The position numbers and the translations under genes are program-made. Of a stretch of DNA of 64,000 bases, positions 47,253 through 64,000 are shown one piece after another (within the stretch, counting starts at the first letter, position 1; the number at the start of each line of letters is the position of its first letter). The notes under the pieces are model-generated. The model ran no database searches. It saw nothing but the letters and a program-made list of their open reading frames with translations, and was not told the origin of the DNA. The DNA comes from an uncultured cyanobacterium (GTDB lineage: Bacteria; Cyanobacteriota; Cyanobacteriia; Cyanobacteriales; CAWUOF01): assembly GCA_963744145.1 (NCBI GenBank), contig CAVUSO010000001.1, positions 6,848,001 through 6,912,000 of the forward strand. Reading direction: 5' to 3'.

Positions 47253-47356
47253 GCCAAAATAATTAGGACAGTCAAGATGCCAAAATAATTAGGACAGTCA
47301 AGATGCCAAAATAATTAGGACAGTCAAGATGCCAAAATAATTAGGACAGTCAAGAT
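47253..47356 (+). repeat. Tandem repeat, 4 x 26 bp, derived from a MITE/REP end
   Basis: GCCAAAATAATTAGGACAGTCAAGAT x4, preceded by TAGACAAGAAA and followed by GACTGTCCCAC; homologous to the left half of the element at 63299. Confidence 0.9.
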
Positions 47357-47431
47357 GACTGTCCCACACTGGGCACTTCAGAATTGGTCTCATCTGTGCT
47401 TTTAACCTGCAAGCGAGTTTCCCCCCCCAAT

Positions 47432-59898: not shown

Positions 59899-60021
59899 TA
59901 TACCTCTTGCAAAAGTCATGTTGATCAATTTACTGGACAGGCAAGATGCCTGTCCCACAACCAAAAAAACTTTTGTGGGACAGGCATCTTGCCTGTCCTA
60001 GTTATTTTTGCAAGAAGTCTA
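59899..60021. mobile_element. MITE/REPIN-like element
   Basis: Terminal inverted repeats TATACCTCTTGCAAAA / TTTTGCAAGAAGTCTA enclose an inverted pair of GGACAGGCAAGATGCCTGTCCCAC units. Confidence 0.8.
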
Positions 60022-60476: not shown

Positions 60477-61220
60477 ATGAACAAAGTTTATTTTTCCTTT
60501 TATGCAGAACTAAAACACTTTTTATCACCTCCTCGTCAAGAACTAAGTTTTGCTCATCAATTTAATGGTCGTGTATCAATCAAAGACATGATCGAATCTT
60601 TCGGAGTTCCTCATACAGAAGTAGATCAGATTATAGTTAATGGTAATGTAGTCGATTTTTCCTATATTGTTCAGCATGGTGATCAGTGTAATATTTATCC
60701 AGTTTCTGTCGATCAAAAAATCGGTCACAATCAACAACAGCAATTACCTGGTTTCGTCTTAGATGTACATTTAGGAAAACTAGCTAATCATCTCAGAATG
60801 CTAGGGTTTGACACCCTCTATCGTAATGATTATGCTGATGAAGAATTAGCATATATTTCTAGTAATGAAGAACGGATTTTACTCACTAGGGATCTGGGAG
60901 TGCTGAAACGTAGTATAGTTAAGCTTGGCTATTATGTGAGAGAAACAAATCCCCAGCGTCAGTTAGTTGAAGTATTACAGCGGTTTGATTTGTTTGATCA
61001 AATTAGACCATTTTTTCGTTGTATCCAATGCAATATTTCGCTAAAAACAGTTGCTAAAGAGACAATTATTGAAAAATTACCACCAAAAGTTAGAGAACAC
61101 TATCAGGAGTTTCGTCAGTGTCCATCCTGTGAACAAATTTTTTGGAAAGGAAGTCATTTTCACAAAATGCAAGAGTTTGTCGTTGAGATAATGAAGCATC
61201 GAGCGATCGCGAAGGAATGA
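60477..61220 (+). CDS. Mut7-C RNase domain protein with ubiquitin-like N-terminal domain
   Basis: SIKDMIESFGVPHTEV, DVHLGKLA..LRMLGFD, LTRD, RCIQCN and CPSC...WKGSH. Confidence 0.9.
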   Translation: MNKVYFSFYAELKHFLSPPRQELSFAHQFNGRVSIKDMIESFGVPHTEVDQIIVNGNVVDFSYIVQHGDQCNIYPVSVDQKIGHNQQQQLPGFVLDVHLGKLANHLRMLGFDTLYRNDYADEELAYISSNEERILLTRDLGVLKRSIVKLGYYVRETNPQRQLVEVLQRFDLFDQIRPFFRCIQCNISLKTVAKETIIEKLPPKVREHYQEFRQCPSCEQIFWKGSHFHKMQEFVVEIMKHRAIAKE

Positions 61221-61262: not shown

Positions 61263-61958
61263 TTAAGAATTATCCGGACTGTAACTTATGCGTAAAAGCT
61301 GATTTCCTCCTCGTTGAAACTCATAGTTAACTGGTTGGATTTCTAGCTGATAACCTTGGTTTTTCAGAGTATTGATGACAGGAATTACATAAGGAGATGG
61401 TTCACAGGAGAGATTTAAAAGTGGAAAAATTCGCACTTCCCGTGCAACTCGACAAAGTTCTGCGATCGATTGAAGATGAAATTGTTCTGAAAAGTGATCA
61501 GAATATAGAAAAAGAAAATGGGAACAGAGAGCTAAATCAAATGTACCAGTGGGAAAAGGTAAAGATGGTAATTCTGCGATCGCATAGCGTCCTGTAGATA
61601 ATCCGACAGGAAAATCTTCTAAAAATAGTCGGATGGTTTCTGTTCTACTCTCTCCCAACTCAGTCGGAGATGCAAATTCCTTCCAAATATATTGATCTAA
61701 ATTAGCAGTTAGACCATCAATAATTAAAGGATAAGTTTCTTGAAAACGCTGGAAAATTTCAGCTCCAGAAAATTGATATACCGGATCGCAGGAAATGACA
61801 TGATATCCTTGTTTAGTCATCTCGGTATTAAAGCTAGCTGGACCACCTGCACAATCAAGAATTTTTAACTTTAAATCCTCAGCATTTAAGTTAAACATTT
61901 TGATGTAAGTATTGAGCGATCGACCGAGAGGAACTACTTTTTCTAACTTTAAACCCAT
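61263..61958 (-). CDS. SAM-dependent methyltransferase-like protein
   Basis: ILDCAGGPASF, FDLALCSHFLFLY and EVRIFPL. Confidence 0.8.
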   Translation of the reverse strand: MGLKLEKVVPLGRSLNTYIKMFNLNAEDLKLKILDCAGGPASFNTEMTKQGYHVISCDPVYQFSGAEIFQRFQETYPLIIDGLTANLDQYIWKEFASPTELGESRTETIRLFLEDFPVGLSTGRYAIAELPSLPFPTGTFDLALCSHFLFLYSDHFSEQFHLQSIAELCRVAREVRIFPLLNLSCEPSPYVIPVINTLKNQGYQLEIQPVNYEFQRGGNQLLRISYSPDNS

Positions 61959-61989
61959 TTTTTTTCACCAATATCAATTGAGCCAATGA

Positions 61990-62023
61990 AATGTAGTTGT
62001 AATTTAGCCAGTACAACTACATT
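61990..62023. repeat. Inverted repeat (REP-like or terminator) downstream of aroF
   Basis: AATGTAGTTGTA-N10-TACAACTACATT, perfect 12-bp arms. Confidence 0.6.
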
Positions 62024-62039
62024 CCTGGGAAAACTAAAG

Positions 62040-62885
62040 TTAAACTAGACACTTTTCCTTGATCTGGATTTGTCGTCCCACTGCGATCGCGATCGGTTGT
62101 AAAGTGCGTACTAAATCTACCATTTCTGATAATGACAGTGCTTGTCTAGCATCAGAAACAGACTTTTCTGGTTCAGGGTGACACTCAATCATAATTCCAT
62201 CAGCTCCAGCTGCGATCGCTGCTTTAGCTAAACCTCCCACAAGTTCACTTTTTCCAGCAGCATGGGAAGGATCGACAATAATGGGTAAATGTGTCAACTG
62301 TTTTAATGCTACTACTGCCCCTAAATCTAGGACATTACGGGTATAATTATCGAAACTACGAATACCCCTTTCACATAAAATTACATCTGGATTTCCATGA
62401 CTAAGAATATATTCTGCGGCAAAAATGAATTCTTCGATCGTCGCAGCTAATCCTCGTTTTAACATCACAGGTTTTCCTGCTTGTCCTACGGCTTTTAGTA
62501 AGTCAAAGTTTTGCATATTGCGGCTACCTATTTGTAAGATATCTGCATGAGCAACCACTGGTTCAATTTGGCTAATTGACATTACTTCCGTGATCACTGG
62601 AATATTGTAAGTATGACGAATCTGATTTAAAATTTCTAATCCTGCTACACCTAATCCTTGGAAAGAATAAGGAGATGTGCGCGGTTTGTATACACCACCT
62701 CGGATAATTTGCACTGAAGTATGAGCTAAATGACTAGCTACCTGCTCCATCTGGGTTAAATTTTCCACAGCACAAGGTCCACCAATAATCACAATATCTT
62801 GATCACCAATACTGACTTGAGAGGATATTTTGATAATGCTCTGGTGTTCTGGGTGAATTTTGCTGACAAGTTTAGCGTTTAACAT
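62040..62885 (-). CDS. aroF: DAHP synthase (type I-beta), catalytic barrel only
   Basis: GPCAVE, KPRTSPYSFQG, QIGSRNMQN, LKRG, CERG, DPSH and SDARQ; 281 aa with no N-terminal regulatory domain. Confidence 0.93.
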   Translation of the reverse strand: MLNAKLVSKIHPEHQSIIKISSQVSIGDQDIVIIGGPCAVENLTQMEQVASHLAHTSVQIIRGGVYKPRTSPYSFQGLGVAGLEILNQIRHTYNIPVITEVMSISQIEPVVAHADILQIGSRNMQNFDLLKAVGQAGKPVMLKRGLAATIEEFIFAAEYILSHGNPDVILCERGIRSFDNYTRNVLDLGAVVALKQLTHLPIIVDPSHAAGKSELVGGLAKAAIAAGADGIMIECHPEPEKSVSDARQALSLSEMVDLVRTLQPIAIAVGRQIQIKEKCLV

Positions 62886-62912
62886 TTGGTACTCCGATGG
62901 AAAGTAATATGG

Positions 62913-62949
62913 TTAATAAAAAAGCCCAGAACTTTAAAAGTTCCGGGCT
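62913..62949 (-). terminator. Attenuator terminator 2 (proximal to aroF)
   Basis: Minus strand AGCCCGGAACTT-TTA-AAGTTCTGGGCT-TTTTTATT; its G.U pair only works on the minus strand. Confidence 0.85.
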
Positions 62950-62975
62950 GAGGTGACAAGCGACATAGCAATTAC

Positions 62976-63041
62976 CTACCCAGAACTGTTTCTGAGCCAA
63001 TAGTAAAAGCTAAAAAACCAATGATTGAGATTTGTGGTCAT
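62976..63041 (-). CDS. Aromatic amino acid leader peptide 2, MTTNLNHWFFSFYYWLRNSSG
   Basis: 7 of 8 consecutive codons are aromatic; contains AGTTCTGGG, identical to the terminator 3' arm. Confidence 0.8.
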   Translation of the reverse strand: MTTNLNHWFFSFYYWLRNSSG

Positions 63042-63071
63042 GTTCGCTCGTAGTTTTGAGGACTGTAGACT

Positions 63072-63106
63072 AAAAAACGAAAAACCGCAGAGTTGCTTCT
63101 GCGGTT
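63072..63106 (-). terminator. Attenuator terminator 1 (distal)
   Basis: Minus strand AACCGCAGA-AGCAAC-TCTGCGGTT-TTTCGTTTTTT. Confidence 0.85.
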
Positions 63107-63134
63107 CACTTGGGTATCCAATCCAAATCTGGAT

Positions 63135-63191
63135 TCACTCCCTGTGAACCGATCTATGCCAAAAGTAAAAGTAATAATTGCTGGTGGGCAT
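63135..63191 (-). CDS. Aromatic amino acid leader peptide 1, MPTSNYYFYFWHRSVHRE
   Basis: 6 consecutive aromatic codons; contains CGGTTCAC, complementary to GTGAACCG, which overlaps the terminator 5' arm. Confidence 0.8.
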   Translation of the reverse strand: MPTSNYYFYFWHRSVHRE

Positions 63192-63237
63192 GAGCTTGTT
63201 TTTGCGGTTGAACGCTTAGTTTATCGTTAGGCTTATA

Positions 63238-63266
63238 TATATATCAAGTAATCAGGGATTTGTCAA
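63238..63266 (-). promoter_or_regulatory. Putative sigma70 promoter for the leader-aroF transcript
   Basis: TTGACA-N17-TATATA with an extended -10 TG, about 46 nt upstream of the leader 1 ATG. Confidence 0.65.
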
Positions 63267-63298
63267 CTATCTAGGGAAAATTAGTCCTAAAATACCAT

Positions 63299-63424
63299 TA
63301 GACAAGAAAGCAAAAATAAATAGGACAGGCAAGATGCCTGTCCCACAAAAGTGATTTTTTCTGGTGGGACAGGCATCTTGCCTGTCAATAAATAGATCAA
63401 TAAGGACTTTTGCTTTCTTGTCTA
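63299..63424. mobile_element. MITE/REPIN-like element
   Basis: Perfect 17-bp TIR TAGACAAGAAAGCAAAA / TTTTGCTTTCTTGTCTA around an inverted pair of GACAGGCAAGATGCCTGTCCCAC units. Confidence 0.85.
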
Positions 63425-63906
63425 TTGATGTTTGCGCGATCGCATTTTCCTGGGTTAGTCAAGTCCTGGGGATGCGATCGGCATTTCATCCAATTGGCCA
63501 AATCTGAGTAGTGGTGGCGATAGTGGCACCAAGGTTTAATCTTGAGTTTTAGTTGAGCGATCGCCATTTCACAAGGGGAAATTTAGCTGTGATCGCCAAT
63601 CACACGCCACCACCAAAACAGACCGGGAAAAACTCTAATTTTCCAGAGAAACTGCAAAATATTCAAAATCTCACCAAATATCAATCGACCTAAACGCTAT
63701 ACTGGACTTAAATAAAGGTAATTTAGCTCCTTGGATGTCCTTAAAAGAAGAAGACAAAAATGGGCGATTGTACCTGTGAATGCTTCGGTCAAATTCAAGT
63801 TTGTAATGAGTTTCATTTTGTATTTCGGGAGGATGCTGTATTGCAAGATCCCTACTTATTCAAGAACTTAAGCACAAAGTTACGAAGCGAGCAGAGTAAT
63901 AACATC

Positions 63907-64000
63907 ATGACTTCAATTCAATCTCCTCCCCAACTCTCCTTAGCAGATTTCCTAAAACTACCAGAAACTAAACCAGCAAGTGAATATATCAACGGTCAAA
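63907..64000 (+). CDS. Uma2 family protein, N-terminus (runs off the window end)
   Basis: MTSIQSPPQLSLADFLKLPETKPASEYINGQ, a paralog of 52546-53109. Confidence 0.8.
   Translation, partial: MTSIQSPPQLSLADFLKLPETKPASEYINGQ

Follow-up and report, generated by a model that had tools for sequence, protein, structure and literature searches.

Two putative leader-peptide attenuators in series upstream of a cyanobacterial DAHP synthase gene

Organization of the locus

The window, that is, the whole stretch of DNA analysed, comprises 64,000 nucleotides from the genome of an uncultured cyanobacterium and has a G+C content of 40.9%. In it, a gene for 3-deoxy-7-phosphoheptulonate (DAHP) synthase is preceded by a leader with two short upstream open reading frames, uORF1 and uORF2, each followed by an intrinsic terminator. 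The elements of this leader had been reported in an earlier sequence-only reading, and all of them are confirmed on the minus strand. They are listed below in the direction of transcription.

63238..63266, minus strand: promoter-like element; -35 TTGACA (63266-63261), 17-nt spacer with a terminal TGA, -10 TATATA (63243-63238)
63135..63191, minus strand: uORF1, 18 codons and TGA stop, MPTSNYYFYFWHRSVHRE
63140..63150, minus strand: antiterminator 1, 5' arm GGTTCACAGGG, within the 3' end of uORF1; partner 63114-63103 in the minimum free energy (MFE) fold
63119..63134, minus strand: central hairpin enclosed by antiterminator 1 in the MFE fold
63103..63114, minus strand: antiterminator 1, 3' arm CCCAAGTGAACC, overlapping the 5' arm of terminator 1
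63072..63107, minus strand: intrinsic terminator 1, stem-loop 63107-63082 (10 pairs including G-U) and T-rich tail TTCGTTTTTT
62976..63041, minus strand: uORF2, 21 codons and TAG stop, MTTNLNHWFFSFYYWLRNSSG
62979..62987, minus strand: antiterminator 2, 5' arm AGTTCTGGG, the final three sense codons of uORF2
62913..62949, minus strand: intrinsic terminator 2, stem-loop 62949-62923 (12 pairs) and T-rich tail TTTTTATTAA
62892..62895, minus strand: GGAG candidate ribosome-binding site, 6 nt upstream of the gene ATG at 62885
62040..62885, minus strand: type I-beta DAHP synthase, 281 amino acid residues, catalytic barrel only

Both reading frames are present as claimed, at 63191-63135 and 63041-62976, respectively. 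The aromatic run of uORF1 extends from Y6 to W11 (63176-63159), and Phe, Tyr and Trp account for 6 of its 18 residues; in uORF2 the run W8-W15 is found at 63020-62997, with 7 aromatic residues out of 21. No obvious Shine-Dalgarno sequence is located ahead of either uORF in the window. The GGAG site proposed for the gene itself is read at 62895-62892 and is free of terminator 2 pairing.

In each unit the tail of the uORF can pair with the terminator 5' arm. The complementarity described for unit 1 was found between CGGTTCAC (63151-63144) and GTGAACCG (63109-63102). In unit 2, the antiterminator arm at 62987-62979 is indeed an exact copy of the terminator 2 3' arm at 62933-62925, and its partner is the segment CCCGGAACT (62947-62939) in the terminator 2 5' arm. 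The two terminators, each predicted as a stem with a U-tract, were also located, the first with 10 pairs when G-U pairs are counted and the second with its 12-bp stem at 62949-62923. The MFE of the 361-nt leader is -92 kcal/mol (z = -2.95), and none of 100 shuffled sequences is as stable. The region 61900-64000 contains 3 terminator-like sites, compared with 1.2 +/- 1.0 in shuffled sequences. The third of these sites is a dispersed palindromic repeat.

The promoter proposed earlier, TTGACA-N17-TATATA, stands as far as its sequence and coordinates are concerned, and its position is conserved in the orthologues, where TTGAC(A/G/T)-N17-TAnnnT is found at the matching place with a score of at least 9.5 in 41 of 80 cases. 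However, the element of the window is omitted from the list given by the promoter scan, because its -10 hexamer has no T at position 6. The distance from the end of the -10 hexamer to the ATG of uORF1 is 47-49 nt in the orthologues and 46 nt in the window. There is a single positionally conserved promoter, upstream of uORF1; promoter-like sites were found between the two units in 0 of 74 leaders, and none directly before the gene.

The gene had been called aroF. It does code for a DAHP synthase, but one of type I-beta (NCBIfam NF006421) and not of the E. coli AroF type. The product scores 394.9 bits against NF006421 (cut-off 335) and 358 bits against TIGR01361 (cut-off 267.75), and residues 18-261 match the Pfam family DAHP_synth_1 (PF00793) with 267 bits. 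It is important to compare this protein with the second DAHP synthase encoded by the same genome, which has a chain of 352 residues. In alignment to the structure 1rzm, the protein from the window covers residues 70-337, while the longer paralogue covers residues 1-330. The N-terminal regulatory domain of the 1rzm type, about 70 residues long, is missing from the 281-residue protein and present in the 352-residue paralogue. In type I-beta DAHP synthases of the Thermotoga maritima type (1rzm) this N-terminal domain carries feedback inhibition. Since the 281-residue enzyme lacks the allosteric domain of its housekeeping paralogue, it is probably a feedback-insensitive back-up enzyme, which would be made only on aromatic starvation. 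A downstream gene for a methyltransferase-like protein of 231 residues was considered as a conserved operon partner and rejected, being kept in only 3 other loci out of 109 (flanks of 1.2-1.5 kb).

Conservation of the leader among orthologues

The leader was compared in 90 orthologous cyanobacterial loci with at least 500 nt of upstream sequence. Carriers of the locus include numerous strains of Nostoc, Calothrix and Tolypothrix. Both uORF families are found in 85 of them. Four leaders have a single unit (unit 1 only in L012; unit 2 only in L014, L105 and L108), and one, L094, has none. The uORF1 family (..YFYFW..VHRE and stop) occurs in 86 of the 90 leaders, 85 of these with an ATG start, and the uORF2 family (..WFYGFYFWPR.SSG and stop) in 88. 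A terminator follows uORF1 in 84 of 86 leaders, starting 18-32 nt past the stop codon, and uORF2 in 83 of 88.

The N-termini of the uORFs vary freely, and conservation is confined to the aromatic run and to the tail that pairs as RNA. All three residues Phe, Tyr and Trp are present in 85 of 86 members of the uORF1 family and in all 88 members of the uORF2 family, with mean numbers per uORF of 3.2 Phe, 2.3 Tyr and 1.1 Trp in the former and 3.8, 2.6 and 1.7 in the latter. The four positions ahead of the uORF1 Trp are aromatic in 332 of 340 codons. The codons of the run vary synonymously or by exchange of Tyr and Phe; the ratio of TAT to TAC for tyrosine is 116:84 and 109:121 in the two families. 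In the tails the amino acids themselves change (RE, RG, WE, LE, PE and others), with the pairing to the terminator arm retained. The distance from the last Trp codon to the stop codon is 24 nt in 71 leaders for unit 1 and 21 nt in 72 leaders for unit 2.

Pairing was counted in alignments of 84 and 82 sequences. For the two terminators and the two antiterminators, the share of alignment cells that are paired is 86-94%. The antiterminator 1 helix is paired in 94.3% of cells, with double changes in 6 of its 11 pairs, and the central hairpin in 77.3%, with double changes in 5 of 6 pairs; together they give 88.3% of cells paired and 81 double-change cells. The corresponding values are 93.5% and 19 for terminator 1, 91.3% and 14 for antiterminator 2, and 85.6% and 44 for terminator 2. 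For each helix, 0 of 500 shuffles match the observed number of cells paired, double-change cells and covariation score; the aligned sequences are related, and therefore these counts are not probabilities. All slid registers are beaten as well, in a comparison that is biased in favour of the helices, as they were drawn from the same sequences on which they were tested. In several leaders (L104, L097, L110 and L098/99/102) the compensation is three-way, a change in the terminator 5' arm being matched in the uORF tail. The conserved aromatic uORFs and covarying stems that the sequence-only reading proposed to look for upstream of orthologous genes are thus found, at 85 of 90 loci and with compensatory changes.

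The leaders were also examined for a hairpin of the classical region 1:2 type (an anti-antiterminator or pause structure), and its conservation is unsupported in either unit. In unit 2 the candidate region-1 helix pairs in 75.5% of cells, a value reached by 316 of 500 shuffles, and its central position lacks a base pair in 68 of 82 sequences. In unit 1 a local hairpin is pairable in 97.2% of cells, with zero double changes. The perfect 7-bp CUCAGAA/UUCUGGG hairpin of the window is lineage-specific. The region 1:2 hairpin is a feature of the trp type and is not needed for leader-peptide attenuation in general. With no such hairpin conserved, the units appear to have a design of three regions, not four as in trp.

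Folding with a ribosome footprint

The leaders were folded with a ribosome footprint of 13 nt in a kinetic window, that is, before the terminator 3' arm exists. A switch was scored when the terminator 5' arm was captured with the ribosome on the aromatic codons and free with the ribosome at the stop codon. Such a switch is predicted in 79 of 84 leaders for unit 1 and in 80 of 83 for unit 2, in agreement with the behaviour expected from the sequence-only reading. Mean capture in the cyanobacterial units is 0.77 and 0.90 for the stalled ribosome and 0.30 and 0.22 for the ribosome at the stop. The same script shows like behaviour for E. coli trpL and pheL, with 0.83 and 0.73 stalled and 0 and 0 at the stop, respectively.

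When the calculation is run at equilibrium with the complete terminator, no more than 40 of 84 leaders switch for unit 1 and 23 of 83 for unit 2. The terminator usually prevails at equilibrium, even with the ribosome placed on the aromatic codons, so that the model needs capture to occur kinetically, during transcription. Classical attenuators depend on such capture likewise. When the ribosome is omitted, capture is 0.96 and 0.83 in the cyanobacterial units, so that untranslated RNA is predicted to be read through, whereas the values for E. coli trpL and pheL are 0.27 and 0.05 (termination). It is important to note that a ribosome at the Trp codon of uORF1 hides part of the antiterminator 1 arm; capture falls to 0.43 in the window, and the median is also 0.43. 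Because of this overlap of the Trp-stalled footprint with the arm, unit 1 may be a poor sensor of Trp.

Proposed mechanism and alternative explanations

Conservation, covariation, codon constraint and footprint folding agree with the reading of the leader as a tandem leader-peptide attenuator, and two such attenuators in series are supported by the comparative and modelling evidence. We consider it very likely that one transcript from the TTGACA/TATATA promoter passes two independent ribosome-mediated attenuators before the DAHP synthase gene, where translation, stalling and termination are the steps that we infer. With Phe-, Tyr- and Trp-tRNAs in the charged state, translation would continue to the uORF stop codon, where the ribosome would mask the last 9-11 nt of the uORF, which form the antiterminator 5' arm. 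With this arm masked the terminator would form, and transcription would end near 63075 in unit 1 or near 62915 in unit 2. If any aromatic tRNA is scarce, the ribosome would stall in the aromatic run, the end of which lies about 12 nt upstream of the antiterminator arm. The exposed arm could then capture the terminator 5' arm before the 3' arm is made, allowing the polymerase to read through.

For read-through into the gene both units would have to open, and therefore the two probabilities would multiply, which would keep basal expression low and make the response steeper. An AND-like or sharpened switch that reports the charging of all three aromatic tRNAs had been suggested earlier. Each uORF has all three kinds of aromatic codons, and each unit would therefore resemble an OR gate over shortage of Phe, Tyr or Trp. 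The multiplicative, AND-like logic looks like a property of the relation between the two units and not of that between the three amino acids; the AND-like part of the earlier suggestion is retained between units, while within a unit the codon content points to OR.

Among the alternatives, it is unlikely that the uORFs are not the sensors and that the terminator/antiterminator switches respond instead to a protein that binds the RNA, to uncharged tRNA, to a small molecule or the like. The terminator stems are unusually conserved in sequence from a Gloeobacterales MAG to the Nostocales (GAACCGCAG..., CCCGGAAC...) and could contain a binding site; however, the overlapping constraints of coding, antiterminator and terminator can also explain this conservation. 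The in-frame changes, synonymous or between Tyr and Phe, indicate that the codons are decoded rather than recognised as sequence. In addition, the antiterminator arm sits at a fixed distance of about 12 nt past the last Trp codon and extends as far as the stop codon, which is the geometry that a ribosome footprint would need. A search of Rfam at E<=10 over 62000-64000 gave 27 matches, none of which reaches its gathering score; no T-box, riboswitch, protein-binding leader or amino-acid leader family (Trp_leader, Bacteroid-trp and others) is therefore recognised. The best match in the leader is the trpB motif, with 25.7 bits against a gathering score of 59; Bacteroid-trp (24.9 against 49) matches the other strand, at the palindromic repeat.

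The possibility that the units are two independent genes for small proteins or sRNAs, each with its own terminator and merely adjoining the DAHP synthase gene, is quite improbable. Each unit does look like a small gene of its own, with its start, its stop and a terminator, and conserved cyanobacterial peptide genes once annotated as sRNAs exist, for example ncl0160 as described in PMC4734099. Against this explanation, the N-termini are free to vary, and the tails exchange amino acids yet keep their complementarity to the terminator arm. The absence of promoter-like sites between the units (0 of 74 leaders) and before the gene also argues against it, as does the location of both elements, which were found only ahead of the DAHP synthase gene. 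Covariance models, searched in 151 genomes under the stricter filters of Infernal, place unit 2 at 20 true sites and unit 1 at 21, all adjoining this DAHP synthase gene. Three weak matches of the unit 2 model (L132-L134) were rejected as ordinary gene-end terminators. In the organism's own genome, nhmmer profiles of both units give no copy beyond the locus in the window.

A third explanation, in which the uORFs encode TnaC-like peptides whose arrest responds to free aromatic amino acids within the ribosome, so that excess and not shortage causes stalling, is very improbable. The order Y-F-Y-F-W is stricter than a run of hungry codons needs, which hints at a constraint on the nascent peptide or on the RNA. 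However, in the footprint model arrest within the aromatic codons leaves the antiterminator arm exposed, which would switch the gene on, and it makes no regulatory sense for an excess of the end product to induce the first enzyme of its biosynthesis. Nor was a constant distance to a Pro-stop, as in TnaC, observed, and the tails vary in amino acid sequence.

The idea that AT-rich sequence, T-runs and hairpins came together here by chance can be practically dismissed: at 40.9% G+C, short ORFs rich in TTT and TAT and T-tracts are common, but only 125 of the 102,074 ATG ORFs of 8-38 residues in the 7.7 Mb genome have at least six Phe, Tyr or Trp within 9 residues, only uORF1 and uORF2 combine such a run with a terminator and a downstream gene, and conservation with covariation at 85 of 90 orthologous loci already refutes it. 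The genome-wide leader scan, which covered 23 residue classes and ATG starts only and is blind to GTG and TTG starts and to weak terminators, gave 41 rows of ORF, terminator and downstream gene for all residue classes. The two uORFs are the only aromatic rows, and in this crude scan no convincing leader for another amino acid is found among the remaining ones.

The reading as two ribosome-mediated attenuators in series is thus preferred. The element was found in 22 of the 151 genomes sampled across the phylum, all 22 within the class, and ranges from a Gloeobacterales MAG to the Nostocales; under the stricter Infernal filters, the sampled families of other classes gave no match. It appears moderately probable that this is the first case of ribosome-mediated attenuation in Cyanobacteria, old and class-wide, in which a minimal three-region switch without superattenuation, used twice in series, lets a feedback-insensitive DAHP synthase feed the shikimate pathway only under starvation. 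If true, this would account for the way in which a DAHP synthase with no allosteric domain is restrained. To our knowledge, Cyanobacteria are a phylum without Rho. The mechanism would also mean that translation and transcription are coupled closely enough in this Rho-less phylum to act as a sensor. It would further supply the engineering of shikimate flux in cyanobacterial cell factories with a small natural part that responds to aromatic amino acids and comes in a single and a double form, and the tandem layout with its natural single-unit variants (L012, L014, G071) offers a system for studying the dose response of serial attenuators.

Comparison with known systems

Leader-peptide attenuation is a textbook mechanism. 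The sequence-only reading knew of no characterised case of its ribosome-mediated form in cyanobacteria, and we found no report of one, nor any description of a tandem aromatic leader element, in the open-access literature or bioRxiv; papers under subscription could describe the element. A 2016 article by specialists in its comparative genomics states that there is 'no reliable data' for this form of attenuation in cyanobacteria (PMC4833913). The string 'attenuat' has no occurrence in recent work on cyanobacterial termination (PMC12642595), the table of attenuators in PMC1173090 includes no cyanobacterium, and 'cyanobacteri' does not occur in PMC2965389. The candidate ncl0160 (Brenes-Alvarez et al. 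2016, PMC4734099) was rejected as a prior description, since its peptide logo has no aromatic run and the gene is also found in Synechocystis; the six supplements contain no DAHP-related words. Another small ORF before a cyanobacterial shikimate-pathway gene is Sml0012, upstream of aroQ in Synechocystis (10.64898/2025.12.20.695498). It is a protein of 45 residues detected by western blot, and the proposal concerns aroQ translation. Unlike the element in the window, the accessible text describes no terminator/antiterminator or aromatic codon run for it.

The leader aroR before the aroF operon of Corynebacterium glutamicum (Neshat et al. 2014) is similar in being a ribosome-mediated attenuator with a mixed aromatic leader peptide (Phe-Tyr-Phe in AroR) and a DAHP synthase as target. 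According to the account in PMC11802643, it responds to limitation of Phe and not of Tyr. The comparison is by description: aroR is a single attenuator from the Actinobacteria, whereas the cyanobacterial leader has two units, each with Phe, Tyr and Trp codons. The enzyme, of the I-beta class without the regulatory domain, also sets the cyanobacterial system apart from the aroF system as described.

The pairs trpL-trpE and pheL-pheA of E. coli have the same general arrangement of an ORF with regulatory codons, a terminator 50-70 nt past its stop and an antiterminator exposed by a stalled ribosome. However, they are single units for one amino acid each, with four regions, and their untranslated RNA terminates. 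The leader in the window has two units with three kinds of aromatic codons in each, no conserved region 1 and predicted read-through.

Besides aroR-aroF, the closest known system is the Salmonella leader mgtCBR with its tandem attenuators mgtM and mgtP, which answer to ATP and proline-tRNA and are called 'a singular example' by the authors (Lee and Groisman 2012, PMC3641672). There too, two short ORFs in one leader each belong to an independent attenuator acting on the same genes. In that account the mgtCBR units answer different signals, while those of the window share one codon class and each has a canonical intrinsic terminator. With the same codon class in both uORFs, the cyanobacterial tandem would make the response to a single signal sharper instead of combining two signals. 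Tandem riboswitches and T-boxes are serial termination switches for one ligand class, with a steeper or tighter response. These sense the metabolite or tRNA directly through RNA, whereas the element described here would sense it through the translating ribosome.

Organization of the leader

The DAHP synthase gene of the window (62040-62885, minus strand) is very likely preceded by two ribosome-mediated attenuators in series, as judged from sequence comparison. Each unit consists of a uORF, an antiterminator, in which the 3' tail of the uORF pairs with the 5' arm of the terminator, and the terminator itself.

Elements of the double leader, read from the sequence (the hairpins also by consensus scan, uORF2 also from the ORF listing)
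63266-63261 and 63243-63238, minus: promoter-like element, TTGACA and TATATA, with a 17-nt spacer ending in TGA
63191-63135, minus: uORF1, MPTSNYYFYFWHRSVHRE, then stop
63151-63144, minus: unit 1, CGGTTCAC, complementary to GTGAACCG at 63109-63102
63107-63082, minus: terminator-like hairpin 1, then TTCGTTTTTT
63041-62976, minus: uORF2, MTTNLNHWFFSFYYWLRNSSG, then stop
62987-62979, minus: unit 2, AGTTCTGGG, an exact repeat of 62933-62925
62949-62923, minus: terminator-like hairpin 2, 12 pairs, then TTTTTATTAA
62895-62892, minus: GGAG
62885, minus: start of the DAHP synthase gene

All of these had been placed here by the sequence-only reading, and each was found in its place, the unit 1 complementarity and the unit 2 copy included. 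Both leader hairpins were scored terminator-like in the consensus scan, which gave three such sites between 61900 and 64000 (1.2 +/- 1.0 in shuffled sequence), the remaining one being a palindromic repeat. For the 361-nt leader the folding energy is -92 kcal/mol (z = -2.95; 0/100 shuffles as low), and a long-range GGUUCAC/GUGAACC helix is part of its minimum-energy structure. The TTGACA/TATATA promoter is absent from the list of the scan because its -10 element has no final T.

The palindromic repeat (core GGGACAGGCATCTTGCCTGTCC) is dispersed, with 279 genome matches at up to 2 substitutions, both strands counted. It forms inverted pairs at 63323/63366 and 59935/59977 (spans 63320-63400 and 59935-59998) and occurs also at 47344-47365. 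The pair at 63320-63400, directly upstream of the attenuator promoter, scores terminator-like and may insulate the leader against upstream transcription. The window has a G+C content of 40.9% and contains 57 copies of the octamer GCGATCGC (HIP1), a cyanobacterial hallmark, versus about 0.4 expected from base composition.

Conservation and specificity

Orthologues of the DAHP synthase (67-77% identity) are present in 14 of 41 related genomes, the source genome counted. Among named cyanobacteria, the best 80 of 572 confirmed relatives extend from Nostoc, Calothrix, Tolypothrix, Laspinema, Coleofasciculus, Leptolyngbya and Stenomitos to a Gloeobacterales MAG. Leaders were compared at the 90 of 94 loci with at least 500 nt upstream; the uORF2 variants of loci L104 and L109, missed by the pattern, were included by hand. 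Both uORF families occur in 85 of the 90 leaders. Locus L012 has the uORF1 family only (..YFYFW..VHRE, stop), loci L014, L105 and L108 the uORF2 family only (..WFYGFYFWPR.SSG, stop), and L094 neither. A hairpin with T-tract begins 18-32 nt past the uORF1 stop in 84/86 leaders and 13-30 nt past the uORF2 stop in 83/88. Phe, Tyr and Trp are all present in 85/86 uORF1 and 88/88 uORF2 sequences.

The 7.7-Mb source genome was scanned for ATG-started ORFs of 8-38 codons. Of 102,074 such ORFs, 125 are rich in aromatic residues (at least 6 F/Y/W within a 9-residue window). With two further conditions, a hairpin and T-tract no more than 60 nt away and a gene of 120 aa or longer no more than 350 nt away, 41 rows survived across all 23 residue classes, and the only F/Y/W rows among them are uORF1 and uORF2, 150 nt apart. 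A sequence-profile search of this genome found no second copy of either unit. The only other row resembling an amino-acid leader, MFTAFACTTTTTTTINHYHSGMFTDKWTSHY, lies outside the window (G000 C1:2132998-2133093, minus strand); its seven successive Thr codons are accompanied by a weak hairpin (-9.6 kcal/mol) and, 271 nt downstream, by a gene for 372 aa; it is probably noise.

A TTGAC(A/G/T)-N17-TAnnnT element scoring at least 9.5 occurs in 41/80 leaders. The end of the conserved -10 element lies 47-49 nt upstream of the uORF1 ATG (46 nt in the window), and no promoter-like site scoring at least 10 was found between the units in 74 leaders. Covariance models of each unit, run on 151 genomes sampled across the phylum, matched unit 2 in 23 genomes and unit 1 in 21. 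This DAHP synthase adjoins 20/23 and 21/21 of these matches, respectively; the three other unit-2 matches are ordinary gene-end terminators and were rejected as leaders. All true matches fall within the class of the window organism, and the sampled families of other classes gave none. Genome G071 carries a single-unit version of the leader. At a decayed locus in genome G083 (L155, G083:C49:72517-75667), unit 1 is intact as far as the terminator 5' arm and is fused to a DAHP synthase fragment containing residues 46-104 only.

Pairing and codon constraint

The proposed helices were counted in alignments of 84 distinct unit-1 and 82 distinct unit-2 sequences; it is important to note that the helices in the following counts were drawn from these same, mutually related sequences.

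Cells paired and double-change cells in the four helices
Antiterminator 1 with enclosed hairpin: 88.3% (antiterminator helix alone 94.3%); 81
Terminator 1: 93.5%; 19
Antiterminator 2 (uORF tail with terminator 5' arm): 91.3%; 14
Terminator 2: 85.6%; 44

For all four helices, 0/500 shuffles matched the observed paired cells, double-change cells and covariation score, and slid registers all scored far below the proposed one. Three-way compensation is seen in L104, L097, L110 and L098/99/102, where the uORF tail mirrors changes in the terminator 5' arm; at some of these loci the 3' arm is changed to match too. The alignment across cyanobacteria that the first reading had suggested thus reveals conserved aromatic uORFs and covarying stems. 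For a region 1:2 hairpin of the trp kind these alignments give no support: in unit 2 it is no better than shuffles, with the central pair unpaired in 68/82, and in unit 1 a local hairpin is pairable in 97.2% of cells with no double changes.

In the four positions preceding the uORF1 Trp, 332/340 codons are aromatic, and substitutions are nearly all Tyr-Phe exchanges or synonymous; the Trp column anchors this count and is invariant by construction. Tyr codons TAT:TAC number 116:84 in uORF1 and 109:121 in uORF2. In the last three uORF codons the amino acids vary while the pairing nucleotides are retained. The constraint on the run is thus at the codon level and that on the tail at the RNA level, as would be expected of a leader peptide but not of a small protein with a function of its own. 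From the last Trp codon to the stop downstream of it, the distance is 24 nt in 71 leaders (uORF1) and 21 nt in 72 (uORF2); the antiterminator arm therefore runs from about 12 nt past the first base of the Trp codon to 0 or 2 nt before the stop.

Folding with a ribosome and proposed mechanism

Folding with and without a ribosome footprint, proposed earlier as a check, was run in two ways. The ribosome was taken to mask 13 nt, counted from the start of the A-site codon. At equilibrium the complete terminator mostly wins, and a switch is predicted in just 40/84 (unit 1) and 23/83 (unit 2) leaders. When one asks whether the terminator 5' arm is paired upstream before the 3' arm is made (switch: above 0.5 when stalled, below 0.5 at the stop), the numbers are 79/84 and 80/83. 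For E. coli trpL and pheL (annotated K-12 record), the same script gave values of 0.83 and 0.73, respectively, with a stalled ribosome, 0 for both with the ribosome at the stop, and 0.27 and 0.05 with no ribosome. The cyanobacterial units with no ribosome average 0.96 (unit 1) and 0.83 (unit 2); read-through is therefore the prediction for an untranslated leader, in agreement with a design of three regions. With the ribosome stalled on the uORF1 Trp codon of the window, arm capture is partial (0.43), and thus unit 1 may respond mainly to Tyr and Phe, although this hinges on the assumed footprint length.

The leader-peptide attenuator proposed by the sequence-only reading is backed by the conserved uORFs, the covarying helices and the codon pattern. 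Beyond the leader anatomy, we infer the following steps. With aromatic tRNAs charged, the ribosome would reach the stop codon and hide the antiterminator arm, and the terminator would form. With any of them scarce, it would stall in the aromatic run, the free arm would pair with the terminator 5' arm and transcription would read through. All three aromatic codon kinds occur in each unit, so each would act as an OR gate over Phe, Tyr and Trp. The "AND-like" switch suggested before holds in that units in series would multiply two read-through probabilities, but not for the amino acids sensed within a unit. That leaders with a single unit occur naturally (L012, L014, G071) speaks for each unit being able to work alone.

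The putatively regulated enzyme

The gene product is a 281-aa DAHP synthase (NCBIfam NF006421, 394.9 bits, cut-off 335; TIGR01361, 358; Pfam DAHP_synth_1 over residues 18-261). It is of type I-beta and therefore differs in type from E. coli AroF, which is I-alpha. The same genome encodes another DAHP synthase, 352 aa long (G000 C1:3531922-3532977, minus strand; locus L111:423-1478), at which the genome-wide ORF scan gave no aromatic leader ORF. This paralogue can be aligned to residues 1-330 of Thermotoga 1rzm, the 281-aa enzyme to residues 70-337 only, and the latter has the length of the domain-less archaeal 1zco and 1vs1; by alignment, it therefore is without the N-terminal domain present in the paralogue. 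The Thermotoga enzyme is feedback-inhibited by Tyr and Phe via this domain. The missing regulatory domain suggests that the target is a feedback-insensitive enzyme, kept off unless aromatic amino acids are scarce.

A 231-aa gene (61263-61958, minus) follows 81 nt downstream. Its Methyltransf_11 match is below threshold (19.2 vs 21.2 bits), and it has no NCBIfam family. Such a methyltransferase-like gene is downstream in just 3/109 other loci, therefore a conserved operon partner is not evident. Convergent with this pair is a gene at 60477-61220 (plus), whose 247-aa product has a ubiquitin-like Ub-Mut7C domain at its N-terminus (PF14451, 98.3 bits) and a Mut7-C RNase domain (PF01927, 168.6 bits).

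Comparison with known systems

Rfam 15 has no family matching the leader. Full-text searches of the open-access literature, including bioRxiv, gave no account of it or of ribosome-mediated attenuation in cyanobacteria, in line with the sequence-only reading; a description in a subscription journal is possible. For cyanobacterial attenuation, PMC4833913 speaks of "no reliable data". A Synechocystis Ribo-seq preprint mentions Sml0012 as an aroQ attenuator peptide in speculation only (10.64898/2025.12.20.695498), and in a preprint on cyanobacterial termination the word attenuation is absent (PMC12642595). The element ncl0160 (PMC4734099) is a different one and was rejected as a prior description.

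E. coli trpL and pheL are among the closest known systems; their capture with no ribosome is low, while here it is high. Another is the C. glutamicum aroR-aroF attenuator, a single unit with Phe-Tyr-Phe as summarised in PMC11802643, whereas two units are found here. The closest tandem layout is that of Salmonella mgtCBR, but its two units answer different signals (PMC3641672). The cyanobacterial leader would thus extend a known mechanism to a new phylum, in which it has three regions and a conserved tandem arrangement.
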